Made by a program: the position numbers and the translations under genes. The notes beneath the pieces were generated by a model. The model was not told the DNA's origin, ran no database searches, and worked only from the letters and a program-made list of their open reading frames with translations. From sequence record DRR378314_15: a stretch of 45,634 nucleotides of DNA; one strand, written 5' to 3'. Numbering within the stretch: the stretch's first letter is position 1; every line of letters starts with the position of its first letter. Below, piece by piece: positions 6,126-34,893 of the stretch.

Positions 6126-6154
6126 ATTGCGAAAAACTTTAATGGCGACTATGT

Positions 6155-16352: not shown

Positions 16353-16380
16353 TTTATAGCTCTTTAATTGATACGATTTG

Positions 16381-16403: not shown

Positions 16404-16708
16404 AGTTTGCTAGCTAACGTGTTTACTAACTTTTTTTACAACCACGTAATATATGTTGGGCTGGGAAATTTTAGTATGATAAGCCACTCAATTAGCCAAA
16501 ATTGACGTTATTCTATTGCTTACTTGATGACTTCACTGGCCAAAATTAAAATACACTTTATATAATTACCCATATACTTACTAATACGTTAAGCTCGGAT
16601 TTAAGCATTTTTTTATTAAGGTAATTTTTTCACTATCACTTAAGTTGTATACCCAAACAATAAATGGCGATTTTTAATAAACTGAAAATATTGTTCAGGA
16701 GAAAATGG

Positions 16709-17432: not shown

Positions 17433-18431
17433 CTAAACCAAGCTACTGGCATTATTCAATTTATCTTCTTTTTTTGATTTAACCGCATAATTAAAGCCTG
17501 GTTGAATGCAATATGAGCCATAGTCTCCCGCTTTATTTAATGCTAAAAACCCCACCTGAAATTGCTTATAATTACCTAACTTACTTGCAATACGTTCAAC
17601 AGCTGCCTTGCATGCATCTGTTGGCGACATTCCTTGGCGCATCATTTCGACTACAAGGTGGCACCCTACCGTTTTCATCATCAATTCGCCCATTCCTGTT
17701 GCTGTTGCTGCGCCAATTTCATTATCTACATATAGCCCTGCCCCAATTATAGGTGAATCACCTACTCGCCCTGCCATTTTAAAAGCTGCACCACTGGTGG
17801 TACATGCTCCAGATAAGTCACCATAGCTATCAAGTGCTAACATACCTATTGTGTCGTGGTTTTCAATGTTGATAACAGGTGCGTATTTAGATTCCACCAG
17901 CCAATCTTGCCACGCTTTCTTTGCTTTTGCTGTGAGTAAATTTTCCTCTACAAATCCCCGTGTTTTAGCAAACTGCAACGCGCCTTCACCAACCAACATA
18001 ACATGCGGTGTTTTATCCATTACTAATCTAGCAACTGAAATTGGGTGTTTAATATTTTGAAGATAGGCCACTGAACCACAGTTTTGATTTTCATCCATAA
18101 TACATGCATCTAGTGTAACGTTACCTTCTCGATCGGGGTATCCGCCATAGCCAACCGTCATCACATCTGGGTCGGCTTCAGGGATCTTAACACCTGCTTC
18201 AACTGCATCTATAGCTTTGCCTTTATGAATAAGCACTTGCCAAGCGGCTTGATTTGCAGCTAAACCATGTTGCCAAGTTGACACAACAATGGGCATATTG
18301 CGTATTTTTGACTTGTTGGTATTGGTGGCTATCTGCGGCATATTTGCCAGACTTTTATTCGTTAGTGTTGAGGCACCGAACGCGAGTAAAGCTGTAATTG
18401 ATTGTTTTAAAAATGTTCGTTTAGTATTCAT
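17433..18431 (-). CDS. N4-(beta-N-acetylglucosaminyl)-L-asparaginase (glycosylasparaginase, Ntn hydrolase) with Tat-like signal
   Basis: PIVVSTW, VGYGGYPD, TLDACIMD, TPHVMLVGEGA, autocleavage HD|TIG, GRVGDSPIIGAG, TGMGE; N-terminal TKRTFLK. Confidence 0.9.
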   Translation of the reverse strand: MNTKRTFLKQSITALLAFGASTLTNKSLANMPQIATNTNKSKIRNMPIVVSTWQHGLAANQAAWQVLIHKGKAIDAVEAGVKIPEADPDVMTVGYGGYPDREGNVTLDACIMDENQNCGSVAYLQNIKHPISVARLVMDKTPHVMLVGEGALQFAKTRGFVEENLLTAKAKKAWQDWLVESKYAPVINIENHDTIGMLALDSYGDLSGACTTSGAAFKMAGRVGDSPIIGAGLYVDNEIGAATATGMGELMMKTVGCHLVVEMMRQGMSPTDACKAAVERIASKLGNYKQFQVGFLALNKAGDYGSYCIQPGFNYAVKSKKEDKLNNASSLV

Positions 18432-18458
18432 TCTTTAACCTAGCTTTTCATCAATAAT

Positions 18459-18487
18459 AAAAAAGGCCAGAATAAGCTCTGACCTTT
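18459..18487 (-). terminator. Rho-independent terminator between the CBM lipoprotein and the glycosylasparaginase
   Basis: Minus strand AAAGGTCAGA-GCTTAT-TCTGGCCTTT then TTT. Confidence 0.65.
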
Positions 18488-18499
18488 GGTCTGTTAAAA

Positions 18500-21349
18500 T
18501 TACTGCTCTAACCCTAGTAACTCAATTTCTGCGATTTGGACGAGTCCATCATTGTTTGCGTTTTTACTGATATTCAAACGATAGCTTAAATAGCCAAAAC
18601 CATTACTGAAATCAAAGGTACGGCGTTCAAAACGGGTACCCCAGCTTTCTCCTACAAAAGCAGCAATTTCTTCCCATGTTTGTCCACCATCATTTGAGCC
18701 CAGTAAACTAAAGTTTTCAGGGTCGCGCTCTGGCGCATCATTTGCACTTGTAATAGCTAAACCGCTAACAACTTGTTTTTGAGTAAAATCTACTTGGATC
18801 CATGAAGGATCGTCAGCAGTCGGTGCACCTTGCCAATCATTATGATCAAGCCATTTTGTATTAACATCACCATCAAACGCTTTATCAGCACTTTCACCAT
18901 CGCCAATACTATAGCGAGCACTGTAAATAGCATCAGGTAAGCGACTTAAGTCTGTGTAGGCATAATCAGGACCAACCGTGGCGATTTCAGCAATTTGTAC
19001 TAAGCCATCATTATTAGCATTTTTGCTTACTGACAAACGATAATAGCTATAAGCTAATGTATTACTAAATGTTAGGTTTTTTTGTTCATAACGCTGTTCA
19101 AATGTTTCACCAACCCACGAAGCTAAATTAACCCAATCTTCAGCATTATTAGAGCCCATAATACTAAATGATTCTGGGTCACGCTCTGGTGCATCGCCAG
19201 CACTGGTTATTGATAATGCATTCACTGCTTTTGCCTGTGGTAACTGGATTTGAATCCAAGCAGGGTCTTCATCAGTAGGTGCACCTTGCCAATCGTTGTG
19301 GTCAAGCCATTTTGTATTCACGTCATTATCAAAGGCTTGAGCTGCACTTTCACTGTCGCTAATACTATAGCGCGCACTATACTTTACGCCATCCGCTTTG
19401 CTGTGATCTAAACCTGGCTGCACAGGGCCGATTAAGTCGATATTTGCTATTTGCAACAACCCATCATTATTCTTATTTTTACTTATTTCTAATCGATAGC
19501 TTGTAAATGCTAATTGATTTTGAAATGTGAAGGTTCTTCTTTGCGCTCGTTCATCAAATGATTCACCTACCCAATTTGCAAGTTTCTGCCAAGTTGTTCC
19601 GCCATCATTTGAAGCAAATAATGTAAAGTTTTCTGGATCGCGCTCTGGCGCATCATTTGCACTTATTATTGCTAATGTATCTACAGCAACAGCACTGTCA
19701 AAATCCATTTGTATCCATGATGGATCCGCTTCGGTTGGTGCTCCTTGCCAATCATTATGATCGAGCCATTTTGTCGATGGGTCGTTATCAAATGCCTTAT
19801 CTTGGTTTTCTGCATCGCCAATGCTGTACCTAGCCGTAGCAACACCATTCATTACATTGGTATGATCAACACTAGTAAACACCGGCCCAACCATTTGAAT
19901 GTCTGACAACTGCACTAAGCCGTCATTATTTTTGTTCTTTGTTATATTGATACGATAGCTTTTATATTTTTGGGCATTAGTAAAGCTGAACTCTTGTCGC
20001 ATGAAACGCTCATCAAATGATGCACCGACAAAGCTGGCAAGATTTGACCATGTTTCTCCATCATCATTCGATCCTAAGATTGTGAAGTTTTCTGGGTCTC
20101 GCTCAGGAGCATCATTAGCGCTTGTAATAAACAGGCTGCTCACCGCATGAGGGCTTGGAAAATCAACCTGTATCCACGAAGGCGACTCTTCAGTTGGTGA
20201 GCCTAGCCAATCATTGTGATCAAGCCATTTAGTGTCAATATTCGAATCAAATGCTTTTGCTGCATCCTCTGCATCACTTATTGCATTTCGTGCTGTATAA
20301 ACAGCCCCCGTTAAATTCTCTTGAGTTGTCACCTCTTGTAATGGTCCCGTTGATACGGCTTCATCAAATAATGACAGTGATACATCTACAATGGCATCAG
20401 CCGATAATCCAAGTTGTTCTGTTAACGGATGAATACTGATAGCATCAAAGGCTGTTTGGCGAAGCGTCTCTAAAGCAACGCTATCCTCTGCGAGTGCCAA
20501 CTGAATATTCTGCTGGGCAGAATCTAAAACTGTTTTTAATGTTTGGGTGTCATTAAATTGAGCAAACGATGCATTAAGTAAAGACAACTTAATGGTTTTT
20601 TCATCAGCATATTCAATTGAACAAACCTGCTCACCAGAGTCATTTTCTTCGCAGTTTTCACCCACGATAAAGTTTTCAAGTTTATCTGCGCCAATTACAG
20701 GGGTTGTAAATACATTACTATTGCTTGTGTTCCACCCTAACAATCTTAATAGCAGATCAGACACCTGACTTTGGGCTAATACCATCAACTCTGGTGTTGA
20801 TACATTCTTACCATCATTTATTTGTTGCTCTAATAATTGTGTTGCGAGTGTGGTAAGTGCATTAGCTTGGAGTATTGCATCCTCTTCACCATTGTTTGTA
20901 TTACCATAATCAACAGATAATTGACCTAAAGTGGTAAAGGTGTTTCCTGCAATTGCTCCTTCTGCTGTTAACTGTGCAAAGTCTGCCTCACCACACTGCA
21001 AAGCGTCGCATAACATTGTCGAGCTCTCACTCGTTACAACATTTAGCTTAACTGTAGTGTTAATTCCAAAACCTGGGGCTGATGCTAACTCAACAAAAAA
21101 CTTGCCTTCATTGTCTGTAAATTGAGTACCGCTGATTGTTAGCTCAGTGCCATTTAATGCGCTTACTGATATATCTGCGTTTGCAATCACACCTTTTACA
21201 ACTGAGCCAGCAATTTCTGCATAGGTTACATCAGGTGTAACAGGAACATCCTCTTTTTGAGGGTCGTTACTTCCTCCTCCACAGCCACTGACAAGTCCAG
21301 CAGTGAGAAATCCTGTGCTCAGATGCTTAAAAAATTTTAGTTTATTCAT
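18500..21349 (-). CDS. Lipoprotein with unassigned N-terminal domain and four tandem discoidin/F5-8 type C (CBM32-like) domains
   Basis: Lipobox LVSGC; four ~152-aa repeats each with AFD-TKWLDHNDW, WIQ, I-SA-DAPERDPE-F---SN, NNDGL-Q. Confidence 0.8.
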   Translation of the reverse strand: MNKLKFFKHLSTGFLTAGLVSGCGGGSNDPQKEDVPVTPDVTYAEIAGSVVKGVIANADISVSALNGTELTISGTQFTDNEGKFFVELASAPGFGINTTVKLNVVTSESSTMLCDALQCGEADFAQLTAEGAIAGNTFTTLGQLSVDYGNTNNGEEDAILQANALTTLATQLLEQQINDGKNVSTPELMVLAQSQVSDLLLRLLGWNTSNSNVFTTPVIGADKLENFIVGENCEENDSGEQVCSIEYADEKTIKLSLLNASFAQFNDTQTLKTVLDSAQQNIQLALAEDSVALETLRQTAFDAISIHPLTEQLGLSADAIVDVSLSLFDEAVSTGPLQEVTTQENLTGAVYTARNAISDAEDAAKAFDSNIDTKWLDHNDWLGSPTEESPSWIQVDFPSPHAVSSLFITSANDAPERDPENFTILGSNDDGETWSNLASFVGASFDERFMRQEFSFTNAQKYKSYRINITKNKNNDGLVQLSDIQMVGPVFTSVDHTNVMNGVATARYSIGDAENQDKAFDNDPSTKWLDHNDWQGAPTEADPSWIQMDFDSAVAVDTLAIISANDAPERDPENFTLFASNDGGTTWQKLANWVGESFDERAQRRTFTFQNQLAFTSYRLEISKNKNNDGLLQIANIDLIGPVQPGLDHSKADGVKYSARYSISDSESAAQAFDNDVNTKWLDHNDWQGAPTDEDPAWIQIQLPQAKAVNALSITSAGDAPERDPESFSIMGSNNAEDWVNLASWVGETFEQRYEQKNLTFSNTLAYSYYRLSVSKNANNDGLVQIAEIATVGPDYAYTDLSRLPDAIYSARYSIGDGESADKAFDGDVNTKWLDHNDWQGAPTADDPSWIQVDFTQKQVVSGLAITSANDAPERDPENFSLLGSNDGGQTWEEIAAFVGESWGTRFERRTFDFSNGFGYLSYRLNISKNANNDGLVQIAEIELLGLEQ
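18503..20310 (-). repeat. Four intragenic ~456-459 bp domain repeats
   Basis: Repeat starts near 20300, 19840, 19385 and 18930; near-invariant peptide motifs with diverged synonymous positions. Confidence 0.9.
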
Positions 21350-21376
21350 AATAATGCCTTAAAGTTCAGGTATCGA

Positions 21377-21442
21377 TTACACACTAGCTTGCCCAAGTCG
21401 TTATTTTTATGGCGTAGGCAATTAATCTTGCTCAGTGTGTAA
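21377..21442 (-). other. Extended intergenic stem-loop between the receptor and lipoprotein genes
   Basis: Minus strand TTACACACT(G)AGC...TTGCCTA...TGGGCAA-GCTAGTGTGTAA; no U-tract. Confidence 0.5.
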
Positions 21443-21464
21443 ATACGTACTTATTTATATGGTT

Positions 21465-24446
21465 TTAAAAACGATAAGTTATGCCAGCATAATATCTTCG
21501 TCCGCTATAACTACTGCTGCGTAGGCGGTCTTTACTATCGTCGCCATAATAAGTTCGCGATTCTTCTTTAGTTAAGTTAATCACCGATACCGACAGAATT
21601 AGATTTTCTATAATGTTATAAGATGCGTTCAAATCGACTTGCTGATAAGGTTCTTGTGAAACCGTTAAGCCATCTGCAAGGCCTAATGCCATTTTTCCTC
21701 GACGGTTGTAAGACGCTCTAACGCTGTAGTCTTGATTTTCAAAGTACGCTGAAAAATTAAATTGATCGTCTGCGCTACCAACAAGTGCAGACTCACCAAC
21801 TTTCTCGCCATCCACACTAACATCGGCTTGGTTCGTATCATTTAATGTATAGTTAGCATTGATACCAAAACCATTTTCAAATGAATGTTGGGCAAACACT
21901 TCGACACCGCGTGAAGTTGCATTTGTACCATTGGCGGTTGTCGTAAATGGGGAAACAGTAATATTGCCGGGCGAGACAATTTCTTCATCCGTAAATGGAT
22001 TTGTAAAGCCATCAAATGGGCGCTCTGAGGTAATAATTAAAGGCACTATAAAATTATCGACATCTTTATTAAACATAGCAATACCCACTGCGGAGCCAAC
22101 TCCGTAGTAATATTCAGCCGATAAATCTAATTGCACTGATTCAAATGGTTCAAGCGCTTTATTGCCACCTGAACCACTCCATCCTTGATCCACGGGGTTA
22201 CCTCTGAACTCAAGGCGATCATCAGCCCACTCTTGCGATATGAAAGTAAGTTGCTCTGGCGCACCTAAATCATTAAATGGTGCTCGTGACATTGTTTTCG
22301 CTGCAGCAGCTCTAACAACGAACGAATCATTGGCTTCCCAGACTAGGTTTAAACTGGGCAGAAAACGTTCATCTTTTACGCTGCGCGTGGTCATTGTTTC
22401 TACATCAACTAAACGTTCATCGCCTAAGATGTCTTCGCCAGTTACGTCGTTAATATCATCTAAAAAATAATTAATTTTGTCTGACGACATAATTTGGGTT
22501 TGTGTTTCAACATAACGAACACCCACATTTCCTCGGAAATCACCAAACGAAAAATCAGCTTGTAAATAAGTCGCTGTGATTTCTTCCTCTATATCAAACA
22601 CAAAATCTGGCTCTCGCCTAGTATACTTAGCGTATTCACTAGTAACTAGATCGCGGTACTTTTGCCAGTTAATACTTGGCATCGTATTAACTTCAAAGCC
22701 ACCTGCAATGTTTTGCTCTGACTCTGCATTAAGTACGTCTTGAAGGCTCGGCATTCCACCAATCCATTGGTAAGCAACTTCGTCAATCGCACCTTGGCTA
22801 AATGGGTCTAAATCTCCACTCTCAATACGGTTTGCGCCTTCTTGCGTAATAAAGAATGTATTATTGGTTTCACGGTGCAAACTTGCTTGTCGATGCTTAA
22901 CACCCACGCGAATTGTATCTACGATGCCATAAGCTATGTGGTAATCTAAATCTAATTGCGCATAGTCTTCAACTAAGTCGCTAACAATAAAGCTTGAGCC
23001 TGTTGAGCCCGGATCGGGATCCCCTGCAACGCCAGCCTGTAAATTTGCTAGTAGAGCAGGATCGGCATAAAGTGATACACGCTCACCTAAACGCCAACCT
23101 GCAAACGATGCGGCATTTTCATTAACACCTGAATCACTTCGGCTTGCTGGCTGTCCACTTTTATACGCTGCATTAAATGACTCAGAAGGCCCTCCACTCG
23201 CTTCTGTTCGACCAAATTTACCGCTTAAGTCAAACAGGTCGCCCGCATATTCAAATGCAAAATCATAGGTATCAGAGGTGTCTTTTTCTTTTGTATAGCT
23301 TCCTATAATCCAAGGAAATTCTAAATTTCCCTCACTGCCACCTGCCCCGCTTGTAAAGTCCATTCCTGTTACAATAGTGCCGGTTTCATCGAGTAAAACA
23401 CCTGTTAAGTAATCGGGGTTGTATTTCCATTCTGGGATCATCAATTGAGATGTCGTGCGATCCTGCCCCAGTTCGAAATGGAAGTGATTAAAGGTAAGTT
23501 CTAAATTATCTGATGGACGCCATTGAAAAGTTGCTTGAATTCCAACTCGCTCGCGGGCCTCTTGCGTAATTCCAACACCAGCAACTTGTGGTGCCCAAAC
23601 ACCATCGTATGTGTTGCCATATGCATCTTCTAATGCATCAAAACGTCTAGTGCTATCCGTTATTTCGTTGCCATTACTATCCGTTGCAGGCAAATCACTG
23701 CCCGTTGCCCAGCGCCACCCACCGCCGCCTGACATATTGCCTGTAAGCGATCTGTTTGTACGCTCTTGATTAGTATATCCAAGTAAAAAACCCAGATTTT
23801 CATCTTCATTCTTCCAAGAGTAAACACCACTAAAGTTGGGTTCATATTCTTTTGTAACATCAGCGTAAGTATACTCAACATTCAATACACCAGAGTTAGC
23901 TTCCATGTCTAAAGGTGTTCGGCTATTTAGAATGACAGTACCACCCACTCCCCCTTCATCCAAGCGAGCTTCCGATGATTTAAACACTTCAACAGACTTA
24001 ACCATGGTTGATGGCAATAAGGAATAACTAAAGGAACGTGATGGAGAGCCCGGAGACGACGCGATGAAATTACCATTTAACTGGGTAAGAGTTAAATCAG
24101 ATGAAAGCCCTCTAATACTCACATTTTCCCCTTCGCCACCACTTCTAGAGATCACAACGCCGGGTACACGCTGCAAGGAGTCTGCTACATTTTTATCGGG
24201 AAATTTGCCAATATCCTCAGCCGTTATAGCATCAACAATTGAATTTGAAAGACGTTTAATCGCTAGATTTTCTGCCATTGAAGAGCGAATCCCTCGCACC
24301 TCTATAACTTCTATGTCATCATCCTGTTCGTTATTTTCATTTTGCGCCAATGCATTACTCGAGCTTGCAATTATCGCTAACATTAATGCTGACTTTCGAA
24401 ACCGCCGAGCAAGGTTTGGCGATCCTAAACTATTATTATTGTTCAT
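21465..24446 (-). CDS. TonB-dependent receptor, carbohydrate-uptake type
   Basis: IEVIEVRGIRSS, DAITAEDIGKFPDKNVADSLQRVPGV, VEVFKS-A-LDEGGVGGTV, GNKALEPFES, terminal GRRYYAGITYRF; start moved to ATG 24446 after GGAG. Confidence 0.93.
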   Translation of the reverse strand: MNNNNSLGSPNLARRFRKSALMLAIIASSSNALAQNENNEQDDDIEVIEVRGIRSSMAENLAIKRLSNSIVDAITAEDIGKFPDKNVADSLQRVPGVVISRSGGEGENVSIRGLSSDLTLTQLNGNFIASSPGSPSRSFSYSLLPSTMVKSVEVFKSSEARLDEGGVGGTVILNSRTPLDMEANSGVLNVEYTYADVTKEYEPNFSGVYSWKNEDENLGFLLGYTNQERTNRSLTGNMSGGGGWRWATGSDLPATDSNGNEITDSTRRFDALEDAYGNTYDGVWAPQVAGVGITQEARERVGIQATFQWRPSDNLELTFNHFHFELGQDRTTSQLMIPEWKYNPDYLTGVLLDETGTIVTGMDFTSGAGGSEGNLEFPWIIGSYTKEKDTSDTYDFAFEYAGDLFDLSGKFGRTEASGGPSESFNAAYKSGQPASRSDSGVNENAASFAGWRLGERVSLYADPALLANLQAGVAGDPDPGSTGSSFIVSDLVEDYAQLDLDYHIAYGIVDTIRVGVKHRQASLHRETNNTFFITQEGANRIESGDLDPFSQGAIDEVAYQWIGGMPSLQDVLNAESEQNIAGGFEVNTMPSINWQKYRDLVTSEYAKYTRREPDFVFDIEEEITATYLQADFSFGDFRGNVGVRYVETQTQIMSSDKINYFLDDINDVTGEDILGDERLVDVETMTTRSVKDERFLPSLNLVWEANDSFVVRAAAAKTMSRAPFNDLGAPEQLTFISQEWADDRLEFRGNPVDQGWSGSGGNKALEPFESVQLDLSAEYYYGVGSAVGIAMFNKDVDNFIVPLIITSERPFDGFTNPFTDEEIVSPGNITVSPFTTTANGTNATSRGVEVFAQHSFENGFGINANYTLNDTNQADVSVDGEKVGESALVGSADDQFNFSAYFENQDYSVRASYNRRGKMALGLADGLTVSQEPYQQVDLNASYNIIENLILSVSVINLTKEESRTYYGDDSKDRLRSSSYSGRRYYAGITYRF

Positions 24447-24569
24447 GTTTATCTCCATTCACTGTGTGTGTTCTTGTGCTGTGTAAGCCTTCATAAGGTC
24501 AAACAATTAGTTAAACCTAAAAACCAAATAATTAAGTTCAAGGTTAAATTGTTGTTAAATCACAATTCC

Positions 24570-24636
24570 AGAATAGGGTTTTACAATTAAAAGCGATAAT
24601 AGAAATTCGGTTAACAATGCTACAAAATCGGCGTTT
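24570..24636 (-). promoter_or_regulatory. AraC-type activator site plus -10 for the receptor operon (copy 1)
   Basis: Minus strand AAACGCCGATTTTGTAGCATTGTTAACCGAATTTCTATTA (24636-24597); -10 TATTCT at 24575-24570. Confidence 0.75.
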
Positions 24637-24841
24637 AGTATATTTTAATATCTATTTCAATTTGAATTGGTTTATAGTCTTAAACCATAAAAACTGAGTT
24701 TATTTATTAGTACAGGAACATTAATACTCAATAAAAACACATATAAATCATTAATTAAAAAGAGATTTATAGTTTATTTTTGATGTCTGACTAAGTGGTA
24801 AATAATATATGGCAACTAAATAATTTATTTTAGGAAATGTA

Positions 24842-25582
24842 GTGACAGGTAAAAATTTAGAAATTTGTTTGAATTCCGACAACCTATTAACGCTCCCTAT
24901 TAATCTTAATAGTGCATTTATCGCAGGAGCAAATAGAGTTGAGTTGTGCAGCTCTATGCACCTTGATGGATTGTCACCAGACAGTACTGCGATCAAACTG
25001 TGTGCGCAACAAATACCAGCACACGGTGAGCTTCTCGTAATGATACGACCTGTTGCAAACACGTTTGTTGCCAATAACAAAATTTTAAACAAGATGATTC
25101 GTGAAATAACACGTGCAGCAGATTTAGGGGCAACCGGTGTAGTATTTGGTGCAATATCTAAATCAGAAATAGACATAAACACAACCCAAAAGCTTGTGTT
25201 ATGCGCACAAAAGAACGGTTTAAAAACAACATTTCATCGCGCATTTGATTGTATTAATGATAAACAACAAGCGATAAAGCAACTAATTGATTTAGGTATT
25301 GACCGCGTGCTAACTAATGGAAATCATTGGAATGCTAACCAGCCTATACTGCATAACCTTTATCAATTAGAACAACTTATTGAGGAAGCTCAAAATCAAA
25401 TTGAAATTGTGATAGGTGGTGGTGTAACTACTAAAAACGCAGGTAAATTATGGCAACTAGCGGTTGGCAATTTAGTATCACTTCATACACACTCAGGCGT
25501 ACTCAACAATAAAGGGGATATTAATCCATTATTGATAAGTGAAATTTTAGATACTACTGAAAAGCAGGCATTGAATGATTAA
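24842..25582 (+). CDS. cutC: CutC-family TIM-barrel protein (divergent)
   Basis: LEIC, GANRVELCS, VMIRP, GATGVVFG, TFHRAFD, RVLT-G, GGGV motifs; GTG start after AGGA. Confidence 0.85.
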   Translation: MTGKNLEICLNSDNLLTLPINLNSAFIAGANRVELCSSMHLDGLSPDSTAIKLCAQQIPAHGELLVMIRPVANTFVANNKILNKMIREITRAADLGATGVVFGAISKSEIDINTTQKLVLCAQKNGLKTTFHRAFDCINDKQQAIKQLIDLGIDRVLTNGNHWNANQPILHNLYQLEQLIEEAQNQIEIVIGGGVTTKNAGKLWQLAVGNLVSLHTHSGVLNNKGDINPLLISEILDTTEKQALND

Positions 25583-26453: not shown

Positions 26454-27165
26454 TGTTTTCACGCATTTGTGAAGGTACTTCACCAAATAAACGTCTAAAT
26501 TGTTTACTAAAATAACTCGGCTCTGCAAAGCCACATTGGTAAGCTATTTGCGAAATAGGTAAGCGTGTTTCAACTAATAATTTACGTGCATTTTCCAAAC
26601 GTATTTCGTTAATAAATTGATTTGGTGTTTTAGCTAAATGTTTTTTAAAGCGCCTTTCTAACGCACTCACAGATAAATGAGCAAGGTCCGCTAAGTGTTC
26701 TATGTTGATAGGGCGTGAATAATGTTCGCGAATATAATCTACTGGCCCTTCTATTGCCCTAACATGGGATAAAGCTTTAGAGGTCTTTTGAAGGTGACGT
26801 GTAACCCCATAAGTTCCGACAATTTCTTGATCCAAATAAATAGCTTTTTTAGAAGTAGAAAACCAAGCCAAGTCTCCATTTGATGTGTGGTTTAATTCAA
26901 GCCTGTCGGTGACAGTTCCCCCCAACATCACTCGCTTATCATCATTTACATATTGAAACGCTAAATGTTTTGGTGAAAAGTCATAATCAGTTTTTAAAGC
27001 TATTTGCTCAAACGTTTTATAACCCTGATGTTCAATAAAATGCTGATTGGCAAAGAGAACTCGACTTTCAGTGTCTTTTACCCAAAACAAAATATCAGGC
27101 AACATATCAAATGCTGATATTAATTGATTGACACCTGCTCTATCAATAATTTGCTGAATGTCCAA
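26443..27165 (-). CDS. AraC-family regulator with N-terminal PAS-like domain
   Basis: FWVKDTESRVLFAN...KTDYDF...YVNDDKRV (PAS-like); LSVSALERRFKK, IAYQCGFAEPSYFSKQFRRLFGEVPSQ (AraC HTH). Confidence 0.9.
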   Translation of the reverse strand: MDIQQIIDRAGVNQLISAFDMLPDILFWVKDTESRVLFANQHFIEHQGYKTFEQIALKTDYDFSPKHLAFQYVNDDKRVMLGGTVTDRLELNHTSNGDLAWFSTSKKAIYLDQEIVGTYGVTRHLQKTSKALSHVRAIEGPVDYIREHYSRPINIEHLADLAHLSVSALERRFKKHLAKTPNQFINEIRLENARKLLVETRLPISQIAYQCGFAEPSYFSKQFRRLFGEVPSQMRENINR

Positions 27166-27205
27166 CGCACAAAACCTCTAAAATCAACTTAAAACTAAAT
27201 ATATA

Positions 27206-27272
27206 AAACGCCGATTTTGTTGCATTGTCAACCGAATTTTTATTACCCCTGATGATTACCATTCTCTATTAT
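27206..27272 (+). promoter_or_regulatory. AraC-type activator site plus -10 for the 3-ketoglycoside operon (copy 2)
   Basis: AAACGCCGATTTTGTTGCATTGTCAACCGAATTTTTATTA (27206-27245), 37/40 identical to copy 1; -10 TATTAT at 27267-27272. Confidence 0.75.
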
Positions 27273-27326
27273 TAATAACATGATGTTAACTAAATTCAAT
27301 AGATTACTATTGAGGTGGTATTTTAG

Positions 27327-28487
27327 ATGAATAACACAAAAATCCGAATGGGAATGGTTGGTGGCGCTGAAGGCGCATTTATTGGTGGCATTCATCGTAT
27401 TGCAGCTAGACTCGATGGAATGATCAGTCTTGTCGCGGGCTCTTTTAGTTCTAACCCTGAACTGACAAAAAAAACAGCAGCCATGCTGGGGATCGATTCC
27501 AGCAGAAGCTATGACACTTATCAACAAATGTTTATTGAAGAAGCAAAACTACCTGTTGATGAACGCATTGATTTTGTGGTTATTGTAACCCCCAACCATC
27601 TTCATTTTCCTATCGCTAAATTAGCCATTGAAAGTGGTTTTCACGTTTTATCAGATAAGCCTGCCACATTAAATCTCCATGAAGCATTGAGCTTAAAACA
27701 AAGTTTAGATAACAGTGATTGTTTATATGGATTAACCCATACCTATACCGGTTACCCAATGATCAAAGAAGCGAAATACCGTATATCCCAAGGCGAGATA
27801 GGCACTATTCGTAAAGTCATTGTTGAATACTCGCAAGGTTGGCTTAGTCAAACTGAAGACGAACAGGTAAAACAAGCCCAATGGCGTTTAGACCCACAAC
27901 AAGCAGGAATAAGTTGTTGTATTGCTGATATTGGCGTTCATGCAGCTAATTTAGCAGAATATGTTAGCGGCCTCGAAATTAACGCACTTTGTGCTGATCT
28001 GAATCAGGTTGTGCCAGGGCGAACACTGGATGATGATGGCACTGTTTTGCTGCGCTTTAATAACGATAGTAAAGGCGTGTTACTTGCGAGCCAAGTAGCG
28101 CTTGGTGAAGAAAATAATTTATCTCTTCGCATATACGGTGATAAAGCAAGTTTAGAATGGAACCAAATAGAGCCAAACAGCTTATGGCTGAAAAGTCATA
28201 ACGCACCAACAACATTATTACGTGCAGGGGTTGCGCTTAAAAGTGAAGCAGCACAAAACGCACTGCGTGCACCTGCAGGCCACCCAGAAGGTTACCTCGA
28301 AGCTTTTGCCAATATATACGTCAACTTTGCAAATCAAATAAACGCCAAAAAAGCTGGGAAATCAGCAACTAATGTTGAGTTCGATGTACCAGGTATAAAA
28401 GATGCGATTAGAGGCATGGCATTTATTGAAAATGCAGTAGCAGCTTCTAAAGAAGAGACTAAATGGCACACATTTAAAATTGGATAG
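27327..28487 (+). CDS. Gfo/Idh/MocA-family NAD(P)-dependent oxidoreductase
   Basis: RMGMVGGAEGAFIGGIHRIAA, IVTPNHLH, DKP, YTGYPM, WRLDP, DIGVHA, PAGHPEGYLEAFANIY; no signal peptide. Confidence 0.9.
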   Translation: MNNTKIRMGMVGGAEGAFIGGIHRIAARLDGMISLVAGSFSSNPELTKKTAAMLGIDSSRSYDTYQQMFIEEAKLPVDERIDFVVIVTPNHLHFPIAKLAIESGFHVLSDKPATLNLHEALSLKQSLDNSDCLYGLTHTYTGYPMIKEAKYRISQGEIGTIRKVIVEYSQGWLSQTEDEQVKQAQWRLDPQQAGISCCIADIGVHAANLAEYVSGLEINALCADLNQVVPGRTLDDDGTVLLRFNNDSKGVLLASQVALGEENNLSLRIYGDKASLEWNQIEPNSLWLKSHNAPTTLLRAGVALKSEAAQNALRAPAGHPEGYLEAFANIYVNFANQINAKKAGKSATNVEFDVPGIKDAIRGMAFIENAVAASKEETKWHTFKIG

Positions 28488-28494
28488 AGATAGT

Positions 28495-29550
28495 ATGAAA
28501 AAAATAAAAGGCCCAGCAATATTTTTAGCGCAATTCATAAGCAATGAAGCGCCATTTAATAATTTTAAAGATATTTGCCAATGGGCGGGAGAGCTTGGAT
28601 ATAAAGCAATTCAACTGCCAACATCAAATACTGAGATATTCGATTTAGAAAAAGCAGCCCAAAGCCAAGAATACTGCGATGAAGTGACTAGCATTGCTAA
28701 ACAAGCAGGGCTTACAATCAGCGAGTTATCAACCCATTTACAGGGACAGTTAGTTGCTGTGCACCCTGCTTATGATGAAATGTTTGATAATTTTGCACCA
28801 GAGCAGTTGCGTGGTAACCCAGAAAAGAGAACTGAATGGGCGATTAAACAATTAATGTTTGCTGCCAAAGCAAGTAAAAATTTAGGACTTAAAAACCACG
28901 TAACATTTTCGGGTGCGCTACTTTGGCATACTTTCTATCCTTGGCCGCAACGACCGCAAGGCCTAGTTGAAGAAGGCTTTAACGAACTTGCTAAACGCTG
29001 GCTACCGATACTTGATTACTTTGACGAAATGGGCGTAGATGTTTGCTACGAGTTACACCCAGGTGAAGACTTACATGATGGCATTACATTTGAGCGCTTT
29101 TTAGCTGCAACAGGCAATCATCCAAGAGTAAATATTCTCTATGATCCGAGCCACCTAGTATTGCAACAGCTGGATTACCTTGCATTTATAGATATTTATC
29201 ATGAGCGGATCAAAGCTTTTCACGTGAAAGATGCAGAGTTTAATCAAAATGGCCGCAGTGGTGTTTATGGGGGCTACCAAGATTGGCAAGAGCGACCAGG
29301 GAGATTTCGCTCGCTCGGTGATGGTCAAATAGATTTTAAATCAATATTCAGCAAATTAACGCAGTATGGGTTTGATGGCTGGGCTGTTTTGGAATGGGAG
29401 TGTTGTATTAAAGATTCTGAACAAGGGGCTAAAGAAGGCGCACCGTTTATTGAACAACATTTAATAACGCCTGCAACCAAAGCGTTTGATGATTTTAGTG
29501 CAATGAATACCAATCCCCACCGTAATAAACGGATATTGGGTATTAACTAA
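28495..29550 (+). CDS. Xylose-isomerase-like TIM-barrel (sugar phosphate isomerase/epimerase family), cytoplasmic; candidate 3-keto-glycal hydratase
   Basis: KGPAIFLAQF, HLQGQL, YELHPGEDLHDG, YDPSH, FHVKDAE, RFRSLGDG, LEWEC metal-binding pattern. Confidence 0.85.
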   Translation: MKKIKGPAIFLAQFISNEAPFNNFKDICQWAGELGYKAIQLPTSNTEIFDLEKAAQSQEYCDEVTSIAKQAGLTISELSTHLQGQLVAVHPAYDEMFDNFAPEQLRGNPEKRTEWAIKQLMFAAKASKNLGLKNHVTFSGALLWHTFYPWPQRPQGLVEEGFNELAKRWLPILDYFDEMGVDVCYELHPGEDLHDGITFERFLAATGNHPRVNILYDPSHLVLQQLDYLAFIDIYHERIKAFHVKDAEFNQNGRSGVYGGYQDWQERPGRFRSLGDGQIDFKSIFSKLTQYGFDGWAVLEWECCIKDSEQGAKEGAPFIEQHLITPATKAFDDFSAMNTNPHRNKRILGIN

Positions 29551-29563
29551 ATAGGACAACACA

Positions 29564-30781
29564 ATGAATAACAATAATAATCACAGCCTCATTTTTCGCT
29601 TATGCTGTATCGCATTAATTGTCACCTCAATGACGTTTGCGATTCGTGCTGGTATTTTAGGGCAACTTGGCGAGCAGTTTGGCTTAACGAATACACAACT
29701 CGGTTGGGTCAATGCAATGGCCTTTTTGGGTTTTCCGATAGCGACTATGCTCGGTGGTATCATCTATAACGCAATCGGGGCTAAAAAATTAGTAGCACTG
29801 GCGTTTGCTTGTCATTTACTCGGCTTGTTACTAACAATATCCGCAGATGGTTTTTGGGCCTTACTTATCTCAACTTTTTTAATTGGTTTTGCAAATGGCT
29901 CTGTTGAAGCCGGCTGTAATCCGCTTATTGCGCAAATGTATCCAAATAACAAAACAACGATGTTGAACCGATTCCATGTTTGGTTTCCCGGCGGTATAGT
30001 TATAGGCGCATTAGCTTCAAGTGCAATGACAGCATCAGGCTTTAACTGGCAATGGCAAGTCGCTTTGATATTAATTCCTACCGCTATTTATGGCGCGATG
30101 ATGCTTACAGCGCAATTTCCTAAATTTGATGCACAGCAAAACTCCACCAGCAGTAATGTGAGAAACCTCGTTTCACCTTTGTATATATTTTTAATCATTT
30201 GTATGACGATAACTGCGGTAACAGAGTTTGGCACTCAGCAATGGATTGAACAAATATTAGGGTCTTCAGGCGCATCCCCAATGGTCATTTTAGCGCTTAT
30301 TACTGGCCTTATGGCACTGGGTCGTTATTTTGCAGGTCCAATTGTTCATCGCTTTAGTCCATCTGGCGTGCTTCTAGGCTCAGCGGTATTTTCAACAATC
30401 GGCATTTTTTTAATGAGCCAAGCTCAAGGAAGTGCAATTTATTTTGCCGCAGCGCTATTCGCCATTGGTGTCACGTATTTTTGGCCGACCATGATTGGCT
30501 GTGTTGCCGAATATACTCCAAAAACTGGCGCATTAGGGATGTCATTAATTGGTGGGGCTGGCATGTTTGCAATGAGTCTGTGGAATCCAGTGATAGGTTA
30601 TTGGATAGATGACGCCAAACAACATGCACAAGCGAGCAATATCTCAGTAGAACAAATTGAAATCGTTGCTGGGCAAGCTGTTTTAGAGAACCTATTAATC
30701 TTTCCAATTGTACTGATTGTTGTATTTTTTGGTTTTCACCTGTTTATAACAAAACAAAAAAATGTAAAAAAATGCGTTTAA
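29564..30781 (+). CDS. MFS transporter
   Basis: About 12 hydrophobic segments; SMTFAIRA, GSVEAGCNPLIA, LNRFHVWFPGGIVIG, YFWPTM. Confidence 0.9.
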   Translation: MNNNNNHSLIFRLCCIALIVTSMTFAIRAGILGQLGEQFGLTNTQLGWVNAMAFLGFPIATMLGGIIYNAIGAKKLVALAFACHLLGLLLTISADGFWALLISTFLIGFANGSVEAGCNPLIAQMYPNNKTTMLNRFHVWFPGGIVIGALASSAMTASGFNWQWQVALILIPTAIYGAMMLTAQFPKFDAQQNSTSSNVRNLVSPLYIFLIICMTITAVTEFGTQQWIEQILGSSGASPMVILALITGLMALGRYFAGPIVHRFSPSGVLLGSAVFSTIGIFLMSQAQGSAIYFAAALFAIGVTYFWPTMIGCVAEYTPKTGALGMSLIGGAGMFAMSLWNPVIGYWIDDAKQHAQASNISVEQIEIVAGQAVLENLLIFPIVLIVVFFGFHLFITKQKNVKKCV

Positions 30782-30816
30782 TAGCAATAAATAGCACACA
30801 ATATAAGGGGCAACAT

Positions 30817-31509
30817 ATGCTTAAATCAATTTCGATTATGTCACTTGCACTGCTTTTCAGTAGCACTGTAATTGCACAGACTCAAGATAATAAATTAACA
30901 AAAGAAGAACGCGCCACAGGCTGGCAATTACTATTCAATGGCAAAGATATGTCTCATTGGCGTAACTTTAAAAGTGACGAACTTAGCTCAAAATGGAAAA
31001 TAGATGATGGCGCAATGCTGCTTACTAAAGGTGGTGGTGACATTTTAACAAAAAAAATCTATAAGAATTTTGACCTAAAACTTGATTGGAAAATTAGTGA
31101 AGTGGGTAATAGCGGCATATTTGTTCTTGCTGATGAGCTAGGTAGTTATATTTACTCTCACGCCCCAGAAATTCAAATTATTGATAATGAACGCCATGCG
31201 GATACCGAAATAGATTCGCATTTAGCGGGGTCAATTTATGATTTACTTTCAGCACCGACTGCTGCACATAAACCAGCAATGCAATGGAATACTGTACGAA
31301 TAAAAATGCTCGATAATCATCTGCAAGTTTGGCAGAACGGCGTGAGTACCGTCAGTATGGTTATAGGCAGCAGCCCTTGGAACACATTAGTAAAAAACAG
31401 TAAATTTGCTACATGGTCTAACTTTGCAACCTCAAAACAAGGCCATATAGGCCTGCAAGATCATGGTGACAAAGTCTGGTTCAAAAATATAAAAATTAAG
31501 GAGCTATAA
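30817..31509 (+). CDS. DUF1080 protein (3-keto-glycoside hydrolase/lyase family), Sec-exported
   Basis: Signal peptide from ATG 30817; GWQLLFNGKD, NSGIF, PEIQIID, GSIYD, WN, GHIGLQDHG-VWFKNIKIKEL. Confidence 0.9.
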   Translation: MLKSISIMSLALLFSSTVIAQTQDNKLTKEERATGWQLLFNGKDMSHWRNFKSDELSSKWKIDDGAMLLTKGGGDILTKKIYKNFDLKLDWKISEVGNSGIFVLADELGSYIYSHAPEIQIIDNERHADTEIDSHLAGSIYDLLSAPTAAHKPAMQWNTVRIKMLDNHLQVWQNGVSTVSMVIGSSPWNTLVKNSKFATWSNFATSKQGHIGLQDHGDKVWFKNIKIKEL

Positions 31510-31511
31510 CG

Positions 31512-33191
31512 ATGAAAAAATTCAATCATAAAGTACTCGTTGTTGGCTCAGGTGCCGGCGGTGCAATGGCCGCGTATACATTAACTAAGTTAGGCCACAA
31601 AGTATTGTTACTTGAAGCAGGTCGTGATTACGACCCAAAAACGGAAAGCCCGATGTTTCGTCGTAACAGTGAAGCCCCGTTAATGGGCGCTGGTAATAAA
31701 GATAAAAACTTTGGCTTTTATGACGCAACCGTTGATGGCGGCTGGCAAGTACCTGATGAACCCTATACAAATGCCAAAGGGACTGACTTTTATTGGTGGC
31801 GCGCACGCATGCTTGGTGGCCGAACAAACCACTGGGGCCGTTATTCGTTGCGTTTTAGTGAGCACGATTTTAAAGGAAAAAGCCAAGACGGAAACGGTGC
31901 AGATTGGCCGTTTAGCTACGAAGATATAGCACCATGGTATGACAAAACTGAAGAGTTAGTGGGTATTTGTGGTACAAACACAGGTCTTGATGATATGCCG
32001 CCATCAGCACCAGGTGTATTGCAGCCACCACCAACCCCCAGAATTCCTGAGTTATTGATTGCAGCATCAGCGAAAAAGCTTGGGATCCCAGCAGTCCCCA
32101 TGCATAGAGCAGTATTAACGCGTCCTAAAGATGACCGATTGGCGTGTTTTTATGCAACACCTTGTGGCTCTGGGTGTTCTATTGGCGCTGCATTTCAAAC
32201 AACCACGTCTCTACTACCAATGGCTAAAGCAACTGGTAACTTAGAAATTATAACGGATGCTATGGTTAAGTCTGTTGCAGTGAATGATGATGGTAAAGTG
32301 ACTGGTGTAACTTATGTTGATAAAAAGTCAGTGACTGAACAATCACTAAATGCTGATATTGTTATACTTGCTGCAAGTGCCTGCGAATCAGCGCGTATTC
32401 TACTGAACTCAAAACACAAAAAGCACCCTAAAGGTCTTGCTAACTCGAGTGGTCAAATCGGTAAAAACTTGATGGACTCAACGGGTGCGTGGTTAGGTGC
32501 TCAAATCCCAGCTTTAAAAGGTCGACCTCGTTATAATGAAGACGGCCATACAGGAAACCATTTATTTATTCCTTGGTGGGGCCATAAAGCTCAAGCAAAA
32601 GGTGAACTTGATTTTCCTAGAGGATATCACTTTGAAATAAGCAGTGGTTTCAACCAGCCAGGTTCAGGTGTTTCAGGCGATAAACGGGGTCTTGGTGTAG
32701 AGCTTAAACAGCAAGTACGTGATGCTTATGGTTCATATGTAGGACTAGCACTGCGCGGTGAAATGCTACCAAACGATGACTCTTACATGGAAATTGATGA
32801 AAATACTAAAGATAAATGGGGTATTCCAGTTTCTAAATTTCATTTTAAATGGTCTGATAGAGAGCTCAAACAGATTGAGCATGGTTTAAAAACAGCAAAG
32901 CAAATCCTTGAAAACATGGGTGCTAAGGTTGGTAAATTACCCCCTGCTGAAAAAGCAATTTCAAAAGGAGGTGAAATAATTCACGAAGTTGGCACAACCC
33001 GTATGGGCAGCTCACCTAAAGAGTCGGTCACTAATCAATGGGGTCAAACTTGGGATTGTGAAAATTTATTTGTAATGGACGCAGGAACTTTTGCTTCTAA
33101 CCCACACAAAAACTGTACGCTAACAATTATGACTTTAGCCATGCGCAACTCAACTTGGATCTCCAAACAAATAGAGCAAGGAGTACTTTGA
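31512..33191 (+). CDS. GMC-family flavoprotein oxidoreductase (glucoside 3-dehydrogenase-like catalytic subunit)
   Basis: VVGSGAGG, LLEAG, RMLGGRTNHWGR, Cys cluster CFYATPCGSGC, IHEVGTTRMG, NCTLTIMTLA. Confidence 0.88.
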   Translation: MKKFNHKVLVVGSGAGGAMAAYTLTKLGHKVLLLEAGRDYDPKTESPMFRRNSEAPLMGAGNKDKNFGFYDATVDGGWQVPDEPYTNAKGTDFYWWRARMLGGRTNHWGRYSLRFSEHDFKGKSQDGNGADWPFSYEDIAPWYDKTEELVGICGTNTGLDDMPPSAPGVLQPPPTPRIPELLIAASAKKLGIPAVPMHRAVLTRPKDDRLACFYATPCGSGCSIGAAFQTTTSLLPMAKATGNLEIITDAMVKSVAVNDDGKVTGVTYVDKKSVTEQSLNADIVILAASACESARILLNSKHKKHPKGLANSSGQIGKNLMDSTGAWLGAQIPALKGRPRYNEDGHTGNHLFIPWWGHKAQAKGELDFPRGYHFEISSGFNQPGSGVSGDKRGLGVELKQQVRDAYGSYVGLALRGEMLPNDDSYMEIDENTKDKWGIPVSKFHFKWSDRELKQIEHGLKTAKQILENMGAKVGKLPPAEKAISKGGEIIHEVGTTRMGSSPKESVTNQWGQTWDCENLFVMDAGTFASNPHKNCTLTIMTLAMRNSTWISKQIEQGVL

Positions 33192-33192
33192 T

Positions 33193-33942
33193 ATGCATAA
33201 TGATGATCGTGTTGACTCTTACAAATATATTTCCGGAATGACACGCCGAGAATCCCTTAAATGGCTTGGATTACTAGCTGCGGGCTCAGCAGTGTCGCTC
33301 TCAGCTGGTTGCAGTAAAGCGCTTGAAGAAACGATTAGTACAAAAGGCCATTGGCCTACTCTAGATATAAAGCCCATCACTGCGAAAGGCTATGGCACTG
33401 ATCCTAATTTAGTTATACCACCTGAATCACCTTGGCCGCTTACATTAACGCAAGAACAACTATCGCTAGTGGCTGTTTTAGCGAATTATATTGTACCTAG
33501 AGAAGGTGATAACCCAAGTGCAACCGAGGTAAATGTTCCTAGTGTTATCGATGAGTGGGTCAGCTCACCCTATAACGGCCAACAAAAAGATCGCGTTACT
33601 ATTTTACATGGCCTCGCTTGGATTGATGATGAATCTGTTATGCGATTTAAAACAAAGTTTGTTGCGCTAAACCGTGAAAAACAAACAGCAATATTGAATG
33701 ATATTGCGTATTTCGATGACACTACGCCAGAGCAGTTTCAGCGAATTGGCAATGCTTTTTTACGTTTAAAGAATCTGGTTCTTGGTGCCTATTTTTGCTC
33801 ACCACAAGGATGTAAAGACATTGGCTATCTTGGTAATGTACCTATTGCAGGTGATTACCCAGGTCCTTCAGCTGAAGCAAAGCAACACTTAGATAGCGTG
33901 TTAAATGAACTTGGTCTAAGCCAATATGCTTATACTGACTAA
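33193..33942 (+). CDS. Gluconate 2-dehydrogenase subunit 3-family Tat (lipo)protein, small subunit of the GMC dehydrogenase
   Basis: MTRRESLK twin-arginine motif followed by SAGC; IVP...PSA, IDEWV, AYFCSPQG...IGYLGN. Confidence 0.85.
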   Translation: MHNDDRVDSYKYISGMTRRESLKWLGLLAAGSAVSLSAGCSKALEETISTKGHWPTLDIKPITAKGYGTDPNLVIPPESPWPLTLTQEQLSLVAVLANYIVPREGDNPSATEVNVPSVIDEWVSSPYNGQQKDRVTILHGLAWIDDESVMRFKTKFVALNREKQTAILNDIAYFDDTTPEQFQRIGNAFLRLKNLVLGAYFCSPQGCKDIGYLGNVPIAGDYPGPSAEAKQHLDSVLNELGLSQYAYTD

Positions 33943-33979
33943 TTTGTAATCTGAATCCTCTTTTTTCTTAGCCCAGTCC

Positions 33980-34002
33980 AAGCAGGGATTTATTCCCTGC
34001 TT
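33980..34002. terminator. Intra-operon hairpin
   Basis: AAGCAGGGA-TTTAT-TCCCTGCTT. Confidence 0.55.
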
Positions 34003-34020
34003 ATATTTAGGTGTAATTTT

Positions 34021-34893
34021 ATGTTGAAATCCTCTCATTCCTTCTTAATTAATTCTATTGCGTGCAGTTTGCTCCTGCTTATGATGCTCCCTTTCACAAG
34101 TAACGCAAGTACATTCGAGTCAGCTAAGGTAAGCGTGCAATTGTGGTCAGTTAAGGATGATTTAAAAGCTGATTTTAATGCAACCGTCACAGCACTTGCG
34201 GATATGGGCTTTGAAGGACTTGAGTTTGCTGGTAACTTTGGACCCTATGCAGATAACCCAGGAGCATTAAAAAACAAACTAAATGATCTAAACTTAGTTG
34301 CCAGTAGTGCACATATAGGTTTTGATAAACTTTCAAACACCCAATTAATGGAGACTTTATTATTTTATAAGACACTTGGCGTGACTAATTTGTTCGTGCC
34401 GTGGGATGAGCGAGCATGGGATCCTAAAGGTATAATGCCATTAGCAAAACAACTAAAAGAACTTAATGAGATTGCACAAAAATATGATATGTATATTGGT
34501 TTTCATAATCACAACAAAGAGTTTGAACAATTTAATAATGAAACTTATTGGGATGCATTAGCCAGCAATACACCTAATGAATTGCCACTGCAACTTGATA
34601 TAGGTTGGCTACATTATGCAGGTAAAGAACCTGTTTATTTTATAAAAAAATACGCGGGCAGAACCTATGCAGCTCATTTAAAAGTACGCACCCACAAAGA
34701 TGACGGCTTAAACCCTATATTTGGTGAAAACAACTATCCATGGAAAAAAATTATCAATTCTCTTATTACCGATGGAGGCACAAAATGGTTGGTAATAGAA
34801 CAAGAGGAGTTTCCTGCGGGTATGAGTCCATTGCAAAGCGTTGCTAAATCAAAAGCAAACTTAGATAAAATCTTAAAAGCCATGCAAAACTAA
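34021..34893 (+). CDS. Exported xylose-isomerase-like TIM-barrel protein; candidate 3-ketoglycoside lyase/hydratase
   Basis: Signal peptide (SNA); SVQLWSV, GLEFAG, FHNHNKEF, QLDIGW, HLK, VIEQE. Confidence 0.82.
   Translation: MLKSSHSFLINSIACSLLLLMMLPFTSNASTFESAKVSVQLWSVKDDLKADFNATVTALADMGFEGLEFAGNFGPYADNPGALKNKLNDLNLVASSAHIGFDKLSNTQLMETLLFYKTLGVTNLFVPWDERAWDPKGIMPLAKQLKELNEIAQKYDMYIGFHNHNKEFEQFNNETYWDALASNTPNELPLQLDIGWLHYAGKEPVYFIKKYAGRTYAAHLKVRTHKDDGLNPIFGENNYPWKKIINSLITDGGTKWLVIEQEEFPAGMSPLQSVAKSKANLDKILKAMQN

Follow-up and report, generated by a model that had tools for sequence, protein, structure and literature searches.

How could a bacterium dismantle a glycan with a locus that encodes no recognisable glycoside hydrolase (GH)? 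This question is raised by positions 17433-34893 of the DNA stretch DRR378314_15 (below, the window; 45,634 nt in full), where 13 contiguous open reading frames (ORFs) had been described, in a sequence-only reading, as N-glycopeptide processing genes joined to a 3-ketoglycoside pathway. The gene list was borne out by our ORF calls and by the Pfam families, namely Asparaginase_2, a protein with four F5/8 type C domains, a TonB receptor, CutC, BadF/BcrAD, PAS_4+AraC and Gfo/Idh/MocA, together with two AP_endonuc_2 proteins, MFS_1, 3keto-disac_hyd (DUF1080), GMC and Gluconate_2-dh3. The Pfam scan, which that reading had called for, gave no match to GH families among the 13 locus proteins, and in this respect the description held as well. 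Because the nearest genome (G001) has the locus at 99% identity across 19.7 kb, an assembly artefact can be dismissed. Purifying selection acts on each of the 13 genes (ratio of nonsynonymous to synonymous substitution, dN/dS, 0.01-0.24; up to ten pairs). Our answer, to which we give a probability of roughly one half, is that a single PAS-AraC regulon may serve N-glycan-derived manno-oligosaccharides and glyco-asparagine, with a 3-keto route in place of GH92 and GH2 mannosidases and with an optional asparaginase. Gene content, the ancestry of the left arm, a shared repeat and the absence of mannosidase genes are read from the sequence, and from them we infer the substrate, the binding of the regulator and all catalysis.

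The left arm is, by its sequence ancestry, half of a high-mannose N-glycan locus, and descends from such loci. In a sample of 251 Alteromonadaceae genomes we recognised a conserved hydrolytic locus (27 genomes; L104-L131, L270-L271; some copies with GH97 or GH47) that comprises LacI, a receptor, a lipoprotein with four CBM32 domains, a kinase, an asparaginase, GH85, CutC, GH2, an SSF transporter and GH92. Its function is assigned from these families, and no description of it was found in the literature searched. Orthologues of its receptor, lipoprotein, kinase, CutC and asparaginase are all present in the window. The TonB-dependent receptor (21465..24458, minus strand; TIGR01782, 627 bits, over the cut-off) nests among receptors of the hydrolytic loci with support 99. 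The lipoprotein (18500..21349, minus) has an N-terminal domain and four F5/8 (CBM32-like) domains, seen as four PF00754 stretches, as internal repeats of 456-459 nt and, in an AlphaFold model with pLDDT 83, as four jelly rolls; a domain homologous to its own occurs inside GH92 ORFs (L213). It is probably a surface glycan binder. A hidden catalytic domain was considered and rejected, as the only fold matches were CBM32 and F5/8 proteins, the Atlas neighbours of the N-terminal domain being unnamed.

The asparaginase (17433..18431, minus; PF01112) scored 418 bits (E 2e-124) against the glycosylasparaginase structures 1p4k and 9gaa, which we take to be the Elizabethkingia/Flavobacterium enzyme, versus 134 bits (5e-38) against isoaspartyl peptidases. 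It keeps the D/T autoproteolysis site of the N-terminal nucleophile (Ntn) hydrolases, with the beta-chain starting at T194, carries an export signal resembling the twin-arginine (Tat) type as read from the sequence, and evolves with a dN/dS of 0.06-0.14; its predicted product is, by fold, a glycosylasparaginase of the EC 3.5.1.26 type. The NagK-like BadF sugar kinase (25575..26453, plus) is the second copy in the genome: it reached 253.8 bits against the NagK equivalog NF046058, below the cut-off of 370 (three other locus kinases, 256-308), versus 489.8 bits for the kinase that G001 encodes at another site in a canonical nagK-nagA pair. The CutC-family TIM barrel (24842..25582, plus; PF03932; PDB 2bdq, E 1e-26) and the kinase accompany the asparaginase in 33/33 loci of the family sample, and both are kept in 29 of the 34 loci of a Pseudoalteromonas survey, which overlaps that sample; 19 of these 29 are without asparaginase. 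Outside Alteromonadaceae, in family f15 (L235-L237), CutC directly adjoins the asparaginase, and the pairing is thus wider than this locus.

A substitution of hydrolases by redox genes is indicated by the neighbourhoods. The asparaginase occurs in 33/251 genomes of the family sample, and its 33 neighbourhoods (31 examined directly, two taken from the Pseudoalteromonas survey) fell into three types: 26 are hydrolytic, with GH85, GH2 with mannosidase domains and the SSF transporter (25 with GH92 in view), two are minimal kinase-asparaginase-CutC cassettes, and five are joined to redox genes. The five joined loci are without the GH2, GH92 and SSF genes of the hydrolytic locus, and one of them keeps GH85. 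The clearest count came from the lipoprotein. After two short matches among 38 were dropped, 36 full-length orthologues remained in the 251 genomes, of which 27 lie beside hydrolases (GH85/GH2/GH92; for five the placement rests on coordinates, at 13-14 kb distance from the asparaginase) and nine beside redox genes (G001, G274, G198, G078, G082, G106, G054, G172 and G208; G198 placed by coordinates, G106 with DUF1080-GMC-small subunit only), never with both nearby. The best metagenome matches included two redox-joined loci (L146, L151), the rest being hydrolytic or truncated. Four joined loci (G054, G172, G208 and L146) have redox genes that lead, in the same orientation, into the receptor-lipoprotein-kinase-asparaginase genes, and G208 has a cytochrome c gene (L102 14728-15099) within the N-glycan genes, between lipoprotein and kinase, which is likely the missing dehydrogenase subunit; none was found among window ORFs of at least 90 aa. 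The label 'hydrolase-free' is correct for the 13 genes and fails for some relatives, which keep GH85 or add GH99: in three Pseudoalteromonas (L010 18489-19679; L011; L133) a GH99 gene stands between lipoprotein and asparaginase, and the receptor-lipoprotein pair comes from a different hydrolytic subclade. GH99 acts on N-glycans and mannan. One hydrolytic locus (G214) is without asparaginase and retains kinase and CutC, a gene set that fits the use of free glycans.

The join appears to have recurred, because the trees reject one origin of the redox-joined asparaginases. The receptor tree was made with FastTree; those of kinase, GMC, TIM1 (the first AP_endonuc_2 barrel), Gfo and CutC were quick trees on subsets of rows. 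A single clade of joined asparaginases was rejected (p-AU 0.0003), with the Pseudoalteromonas ones nesting with seven hydrolytic ones, and the same was true for joined kinases (p-AU 0.0008) and GMCs (0.034). The joined receptors occupy four places among those of hydrolytic loci, two of them within Pseudoalteromonas, and the joined loci of g19/g45 stand apart by their gene order, their MFS family and their regulator, which is LacI in 2/3. By our count, two or more joins took place on the redox side, and the N-glycan genes came from three to four sources.

The two arms are also linked by a repeat. The longest inverted pair of the region (74 nt, 78%; 24572-24645 and 27197-27270), missed by the sequence-only reading, connects the receptor promoter with the Gfo promoter (2 matches versus 0 expected in 100 shuffles). 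It holds a probable operator for the PAS-AraC regulator (26443..27165, minus; PF08448+PF12833), one copy upstream of the receptor (24598..24637, minus) and the other upstream of the redox operon (27205..27244, plus). The core consists of two CCGAWTTT half-sites with a 21-bp period, and a -10-like hexamer is conserved at constant spacing from it; this direct repeat abuts the -35 region and tracks the regulator, as would be expected of its binding site. AraC/XylS sites have this period. G001 holds only the two copies (up to 3 mismatches). In the 34 Pseudoalteromonas loci a matrix found 66 sites, of which 34 precede Gfo and 32 precede receptors, both receptors of two tandem loci among them, with scores of at least 43 for real sites and below -28 for shuffled loci. 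At a threshold of at least 14/16, the operator was present at 12/12 Gfo promoters beside PAS-AraC in other genera versus 1/8 without the regulator, at 12/12 Pseudoalteromonas/g42 receptor promoters versus 0/28 receptor promoters of hydrolytic loci, in 2/1700 shuffles, and at 0/6 promoters tested in the g19/g45 and L146 joined loci. Four held-out loci (L134, L151, L230, L267) carry it too, and in two of them (L230, L267), from two other genera, the redox-type operator precedes an N-glycan-type receptor. Since the repeat tracks PAS-AraC and the receptor promoters of hydrolytic loci are without it, the operator of the redox operon has probably been put before an N-glycan-type receptor in this marine Pseudoalteromonas, and PAS-AraC is probably the activator of both promoters. 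Three loci (L013, L016, L134) have two different TonB receptors, each with its own operator copy. The closest loci to the regulator query were those of Pseudoalteromonas; full-length homologues (31-34%) occur in Planctomycetes in unrelated contexts (L041-L046). A sigma-70 scan returned fewer promoter-like sites (41) than the shuffles (53) and was set aside.

The right arm is, as far as sequence can tell, the known 3-ketoglycoside pathway, with predicted catalysis. TIM1 (28480..29550, plus), predicted to be cytoplasmic, aligned along its whole length with PDB 8ro4 ('2-hydroxy-3-keto-glucal hydratase'; residues 6-355, 566 bits, E 2e-169), which makes it the apparent orthologue of an enzyme from a pathway that we take to be of Agrobacterium origin. 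The second barrel, TIM2 (34021..34893, plus), has a signal peptide and gave weak matches to 8bvk, 8tct, 8tcd and 8tcs (E ~1e-11), of which 8tct and 8tcd are presumably BT1 and AL1. Residues H96, H162, H164, D193, W196 and H219 of TIM2 align with conserved residues and E260/E262 are invariant, so that at the residue level it shows the metal ligands and catalytic Glu expected of a beta-lyase; the roles of the metal and substrate residues were assigned to the beta-lyases AL1/BT1 in 10.1101/2024.03.25.586180, and TIM2 may thus be a 3-keto-beta-glycoside 1,2-lyase. The DUF1080 protein (30772..31509, plus; signal peptide; PF06439, 170 bits, cut-off 26.8; PDB 8tda, E 4e-33) is a putative 3-keto-alpha-glycoside lyase/hydratase, an assignment at the family level, following the role given to DUF1080 in the same paper. 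A GMC flavoprotein (31512..33191, plus; PF00732/PF05199) is the putative large subunit of a glycoside 3-dehydrogenase; its nearest PDB entries are large subunits of FAD glucose/fructose dehydrogenases, and it gave no match at E<=1e-30 in three Caulobacter genomes, which may lack lacA. The small subunit (33193..33942, plus; Gluconate-2-dehydrogenase subunit 3 family, PF13618) carries the twin-arginine motif RRxxLK. The Gfo/Idh/MocA protein (27327..28487, plus; PDB 3v5n, E 1e-106) scored 32.4 bits against the BT2158 family NF058561 (cut-off 750) and its N-terminus is without a signal peptide; for these two reasons it is read as a putative 3-keto-sugar reductase. An MFS transporter (29564..30781, plus; PF07690) completes the operon.

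PAS-AraC and the redox arm are conserved in all 34 Pseudoalteromonas loci: Gfo, TIM1 and MFS in 34/34, DUF1080, GMC and the small subunit in 33/34, one locus being truncated. In the family sample, the TIM1 gene occurs in 104/251 genomes. A plasmid search added only matches on Pseudoalteromonas secondary replicons and distant Gfo proteins. The GMC subfamily was considered as a marker specific to N-glycan loci, an idea that was dropped, as it occurs in 36/251 genomes (14/33 with and 22/218 without asparaginase). A stand-alone DUF1080-GMC-small subunit trio is found in many genera (L250-L269), often apart from Gfo/TIM genes and twice with the operator upstream. In L007 the GMC and small-subunit genes lie at a synonymous distance of ~1.1-1.6 from those of the window, versus 0.2-0.6 for their neighbours, which suggests an allele replacement of the dehydrogenase pair.

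If one regulon indeed serves both arms, the route could run as follows. The lipoprotein would bind, and the TonB receptor import, glycans or glyco-asparagine left by proteases, and the exported glycosylasparaginase, where present, would cut the bond between glycan and Asn. Oxidation at C3 of the sugar at the non-reducing end would fall to the periplasmic GMC pair, after which that sugar would be eliminated as a 2-hydroxy-3-keto-glycal, residue by residue, with DUF1080 acting on alpha and TIM2 on beta linkages. MFS would then import the glycal or keto-sugar, TIM1 hydrate it and Gfo reduce it. Mannose would emerge from this route as glucose, because the elimination erases the C2 stereocentre. 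The N-acetylglucosamine (GlcNAc) end would be finished by GH20s encoded elsewhere, by the NagK-like kinase and possibly by CutC. A bolder form of this proposal, which we put forward tentatively and hold less firmly than the proposal itself, is that marine Alteromonadaceae repeatedly dropped their N-glycan mannosidases, that one oxidation-elimination machine removes every alpha-1,2/3/6 and beta-1,4 mannose of high-mannose N-glycans and converts it into glucose, and that CutC acts at the GlcNAc end.

The hydrolases of whole genomes fit this picture in part. In G001 (100% complete; positive controls for the hydrolase search) no GH92, GH85, GH2 mannosidase, GH38, GH130, GH125 or GH47 was found, GH76, GH99 and PNGase being outside the search, and the 10/10 asparaginase-bearing Pseudoalteromonas have no GH92, GH85 or GH2 mannosidase; the survey that covered them found GH92 in 4/35 genomes. 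Three GH20 and two large GH18 genes are present in G001. The proposed joining of N-glycan processing to the redox route is upheld in the probable shared operator, the ancestry of the left arm, the recurring join and the missing GH85/GH92, and falls short for the asparaginase, which is an accessory or optional front end, present in 10/34 loci, without an operator of its own and behind a hairpin.

Several observations weigh against our reading. Only 5/33 asparaginase loci are joined, and in Pseudoalteromonas the asparaginase is limited to 10/34 genomes, though always at this locus. While 20 of the 34 loci have the window-type receptor and lipoprotein and one is truncated, 10 have a different receptor and no lipoprotein and three have no receptor. 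Ten of 12 out-of-family asparaginase matches were examined, and all ten were without redox genes within ~10 kb (ORF calling was poor in GC-rich loci); the asparaginase is present in 3/400 genomes of a class sample and 14/401 of a phylum sample. No operator was seen at the starts of asparaginase (0/4), lipoprotein (0/5) or cutC-kinase (0/10). A terminator-like hairpin with a U tail, predicted by folding, lies between lipoprotein and asparaginase (18462..18487, minus), so transcription of the asparaginase would require either read-through or a separate promoter; hairpins of this kind come after the lipoprotein in 12/12 loci folded, including two hydrolytic ones. A single origin was not rejected for TIM1 (p-AU 0.62), Gfo (0.26) and CutC (0.21). 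In 23/26 genomes with the hydrolytic asparaginase locus TIM1 is present too, unlinked. Three genomes (G054, G106, G144) each retain a single GH92 at another site, and an endo-enzyme (GH85) that could release the glycans is missing. The RNA runs, four of ten having been analysed, are silent on co-expression, since they consist of assembled contigs that either have low depth or stem from diverged relatives. In the literature, mannosides were cleaved by Gfo-type dehydrogenases acting on activated aryl substrates, with no GMC enzyme (10.1101/2024.03.25.586180), and the Xanthomonas asparaginase was not GlcNAc-induced (PMC4173781).

The leading alternative is a pathway for glucosides in general (trehalose, sucrose, maltose, cellobiose, aryl glucosides, Glc-alpha-1,3-Man caps) that reuses an N-glycan-type receptor and lipoprotein, with asparaginase, kinase and CutC handling GlcNAc-Asn stubs in parallel and with no redox step. 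N-glycan genes are absent from 19/20 TIM1 loci in other genera and from 18/20 further loci with this GMC type. The characterised relatives have published phenotypes on glucosides and lactose (PMC8121099, PMC9007349). The receptor is exchangeable, as the 10/34 loci show, and the operator is missing at asparaginase and cutC-kinase. The full-length match of TIM1 to a 2-hydroxy-3-keto-glucal hydratase points the same way; it should not discriminate, however, because glucosides and mannosides would give the same glycal. What speaks against a purely glucoside pathway is that, within Pseudoalteromonas, hydrolytic N-glycan loci have supplied new genes for the place behind the operator on two or more occasions, that other genera show the join again, and that the lipoprotein is always found with hydrolases or redox genes (36/36). 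We consider this alternative rather unlikely, yet the most serious of the three.

The version in which the redox enzymes attack the GlcNAc core itself, cleaving chitobiose or the C-N bond of GlcNAc-Asn via a 2-acetamido-3-keto-glycal, was the strict form of the sequence-only reading, and we regard it as improbable. This chemistry is known from GH109 enzymes, which apply it to N-acetyl sugars. The AL/BT systems (Alistipes AL1-4 and BT2156-2160) break the C-N bond of acarbose (10.1101/2024.03.25.586180), kinase and CutC outlast the asparaginase in the 19 loci mentioned above, and the joined loci are mostly without GH85, all of which would suit it. However, GH20 genes are encoded elsewhere in 5/5 joined genomes tested, a finding that also weighs against a complete redox route, TIM1 is close to a 2-hydroxy-glucal hydratase, and the main text of 10.1101/2024.03.25.586180 reports no GlcNAc substrate for the AL/BT enzymes. 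In this form the claim finds no support, and since the displaced genes are mainly mannosidases and a transporter, the evidence points to the mannose arms rather than the GlcNAc core. That the two arms are chance neighbours, a decaying N-glycan locus beside an unrelated redox operon in a variable chromosomal spot, would agree with the wide variation of the left arm among the 34 loci, with the transposase-broken receptor of one of them (L019 12048-16076, where a DDE transposase splits the gene and kinase and cutC are lost at the locus) and with the 5/33 joined loci, and is very improbable given the operator before every receptor at the locus (32 sites), left-arm dN/dS values well below 1 and the repeated joins.

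Substitution of mannosidases by the 3-keto route within one regulon would suggest a candidate way in which glycoprotein sugars may be digested without classical mannosidases. The 3-keto route is promiscuous and its substrates in the papers cited here are mostly small glucosides; here it stands where sister loci have mannosidases, and the comparative evidence names glycoprotein N-glycans as a candidate natural class. If true, the pathway would have a host-glycan substrate invisible to CAZyme annotation, genomes scored as N-glycan-negative for lacking GH92/GH2/GH85 could use N-glycans, estimates of marine glycoprotein turnover would change, and an exo-acting tool for cleavage of alpha- and beta-mannosides would be at hand. 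The locus makes testable the inducer and operator of PAS-AraC and the reaction of CutC, which is kept with the kinase even after asparaginase loss.

The remainder of the window holds a cellobiose/chitobiose-type phosphotransferase system EIIC fused to an EAL phosphodiesterase domain (40134-42155, minus), possibly a sugar-sensing cyclic di-GMP enzyme, and adjacent genes for a DUF885 protein, Xaa-Pro dipeptidase and siderophore-type TonB receptor (2709-8566), possibly a peptide uptake cluster. DUF1826, ZigA GTPase and FMN reductase genes lie between minCDE and the locus (14485-17368), with content varying among relatives, and the ORFs at 928-1611, 10427-10831 and 42336-42668 have no Pfam family.

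Comparison with known systems places each module on familiar ground. The AL1-4 and BT2156-2160 systems perform stepwise, exo-acting 3-keto cleavage of alpha and beta anomers, including aryl mannosides (10.1101/2024.03.25.586180). The window resembles them in its TIM-barrel lyase, whose metal and substrate residues are shared, in its DUF1080 lyase/hydratase and in its Gfo oxidoreductase; it differs in that oxidation is assigned to the GMC pair, Gfo falls outside the BT2158 family, an 8ro4-type hydratase is encoded separately and, unlike the systems as published, the redox set is tied to N-glycan capture genes. The Caulobacter LacABC and 8ro4 pathways likewise cluster GMC with small subunit, DUF1080, TIM barrels, Gfo and MFS, and PMC9007349 reports lactose, salicin and raffinose as substrates of LacABC with DUF1080; the window has no cytochrome c (LacB) gene, and its regulator is PAS-AraC. 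Like the structures 1p4k/9gaa, the asparaginase is an Ntn hydrolase with the D/T site. Pairing of an asparaginase with a sugar kinase is also seen in AsnA2-SugK of Lactobacillus casei alf-2 (PMC6960285), which stands with a fucosidase and permease, whereas the enzyme here is probably exported and lies beside a TonB receptor and redox operon. The hydrolytic Alteromonadaceae locus, akin to the Xanthomonas nix cluster (PMC4173781), shares its five orthologues with the window, which instead of GH85, GH2, GH92, SSF and LacI has the redox operon, MFS and PAS-AraC operator. In the open-access literature (subscription papers were outside the scope) no paper was found that connects the 3-keto pathway with either glycosylasparaginase or an N-glycan locus. 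Both modules are thus known, and it is their regulated, recurrent and mutually exclusive substitution that, on comparative evidence, appears to be new.

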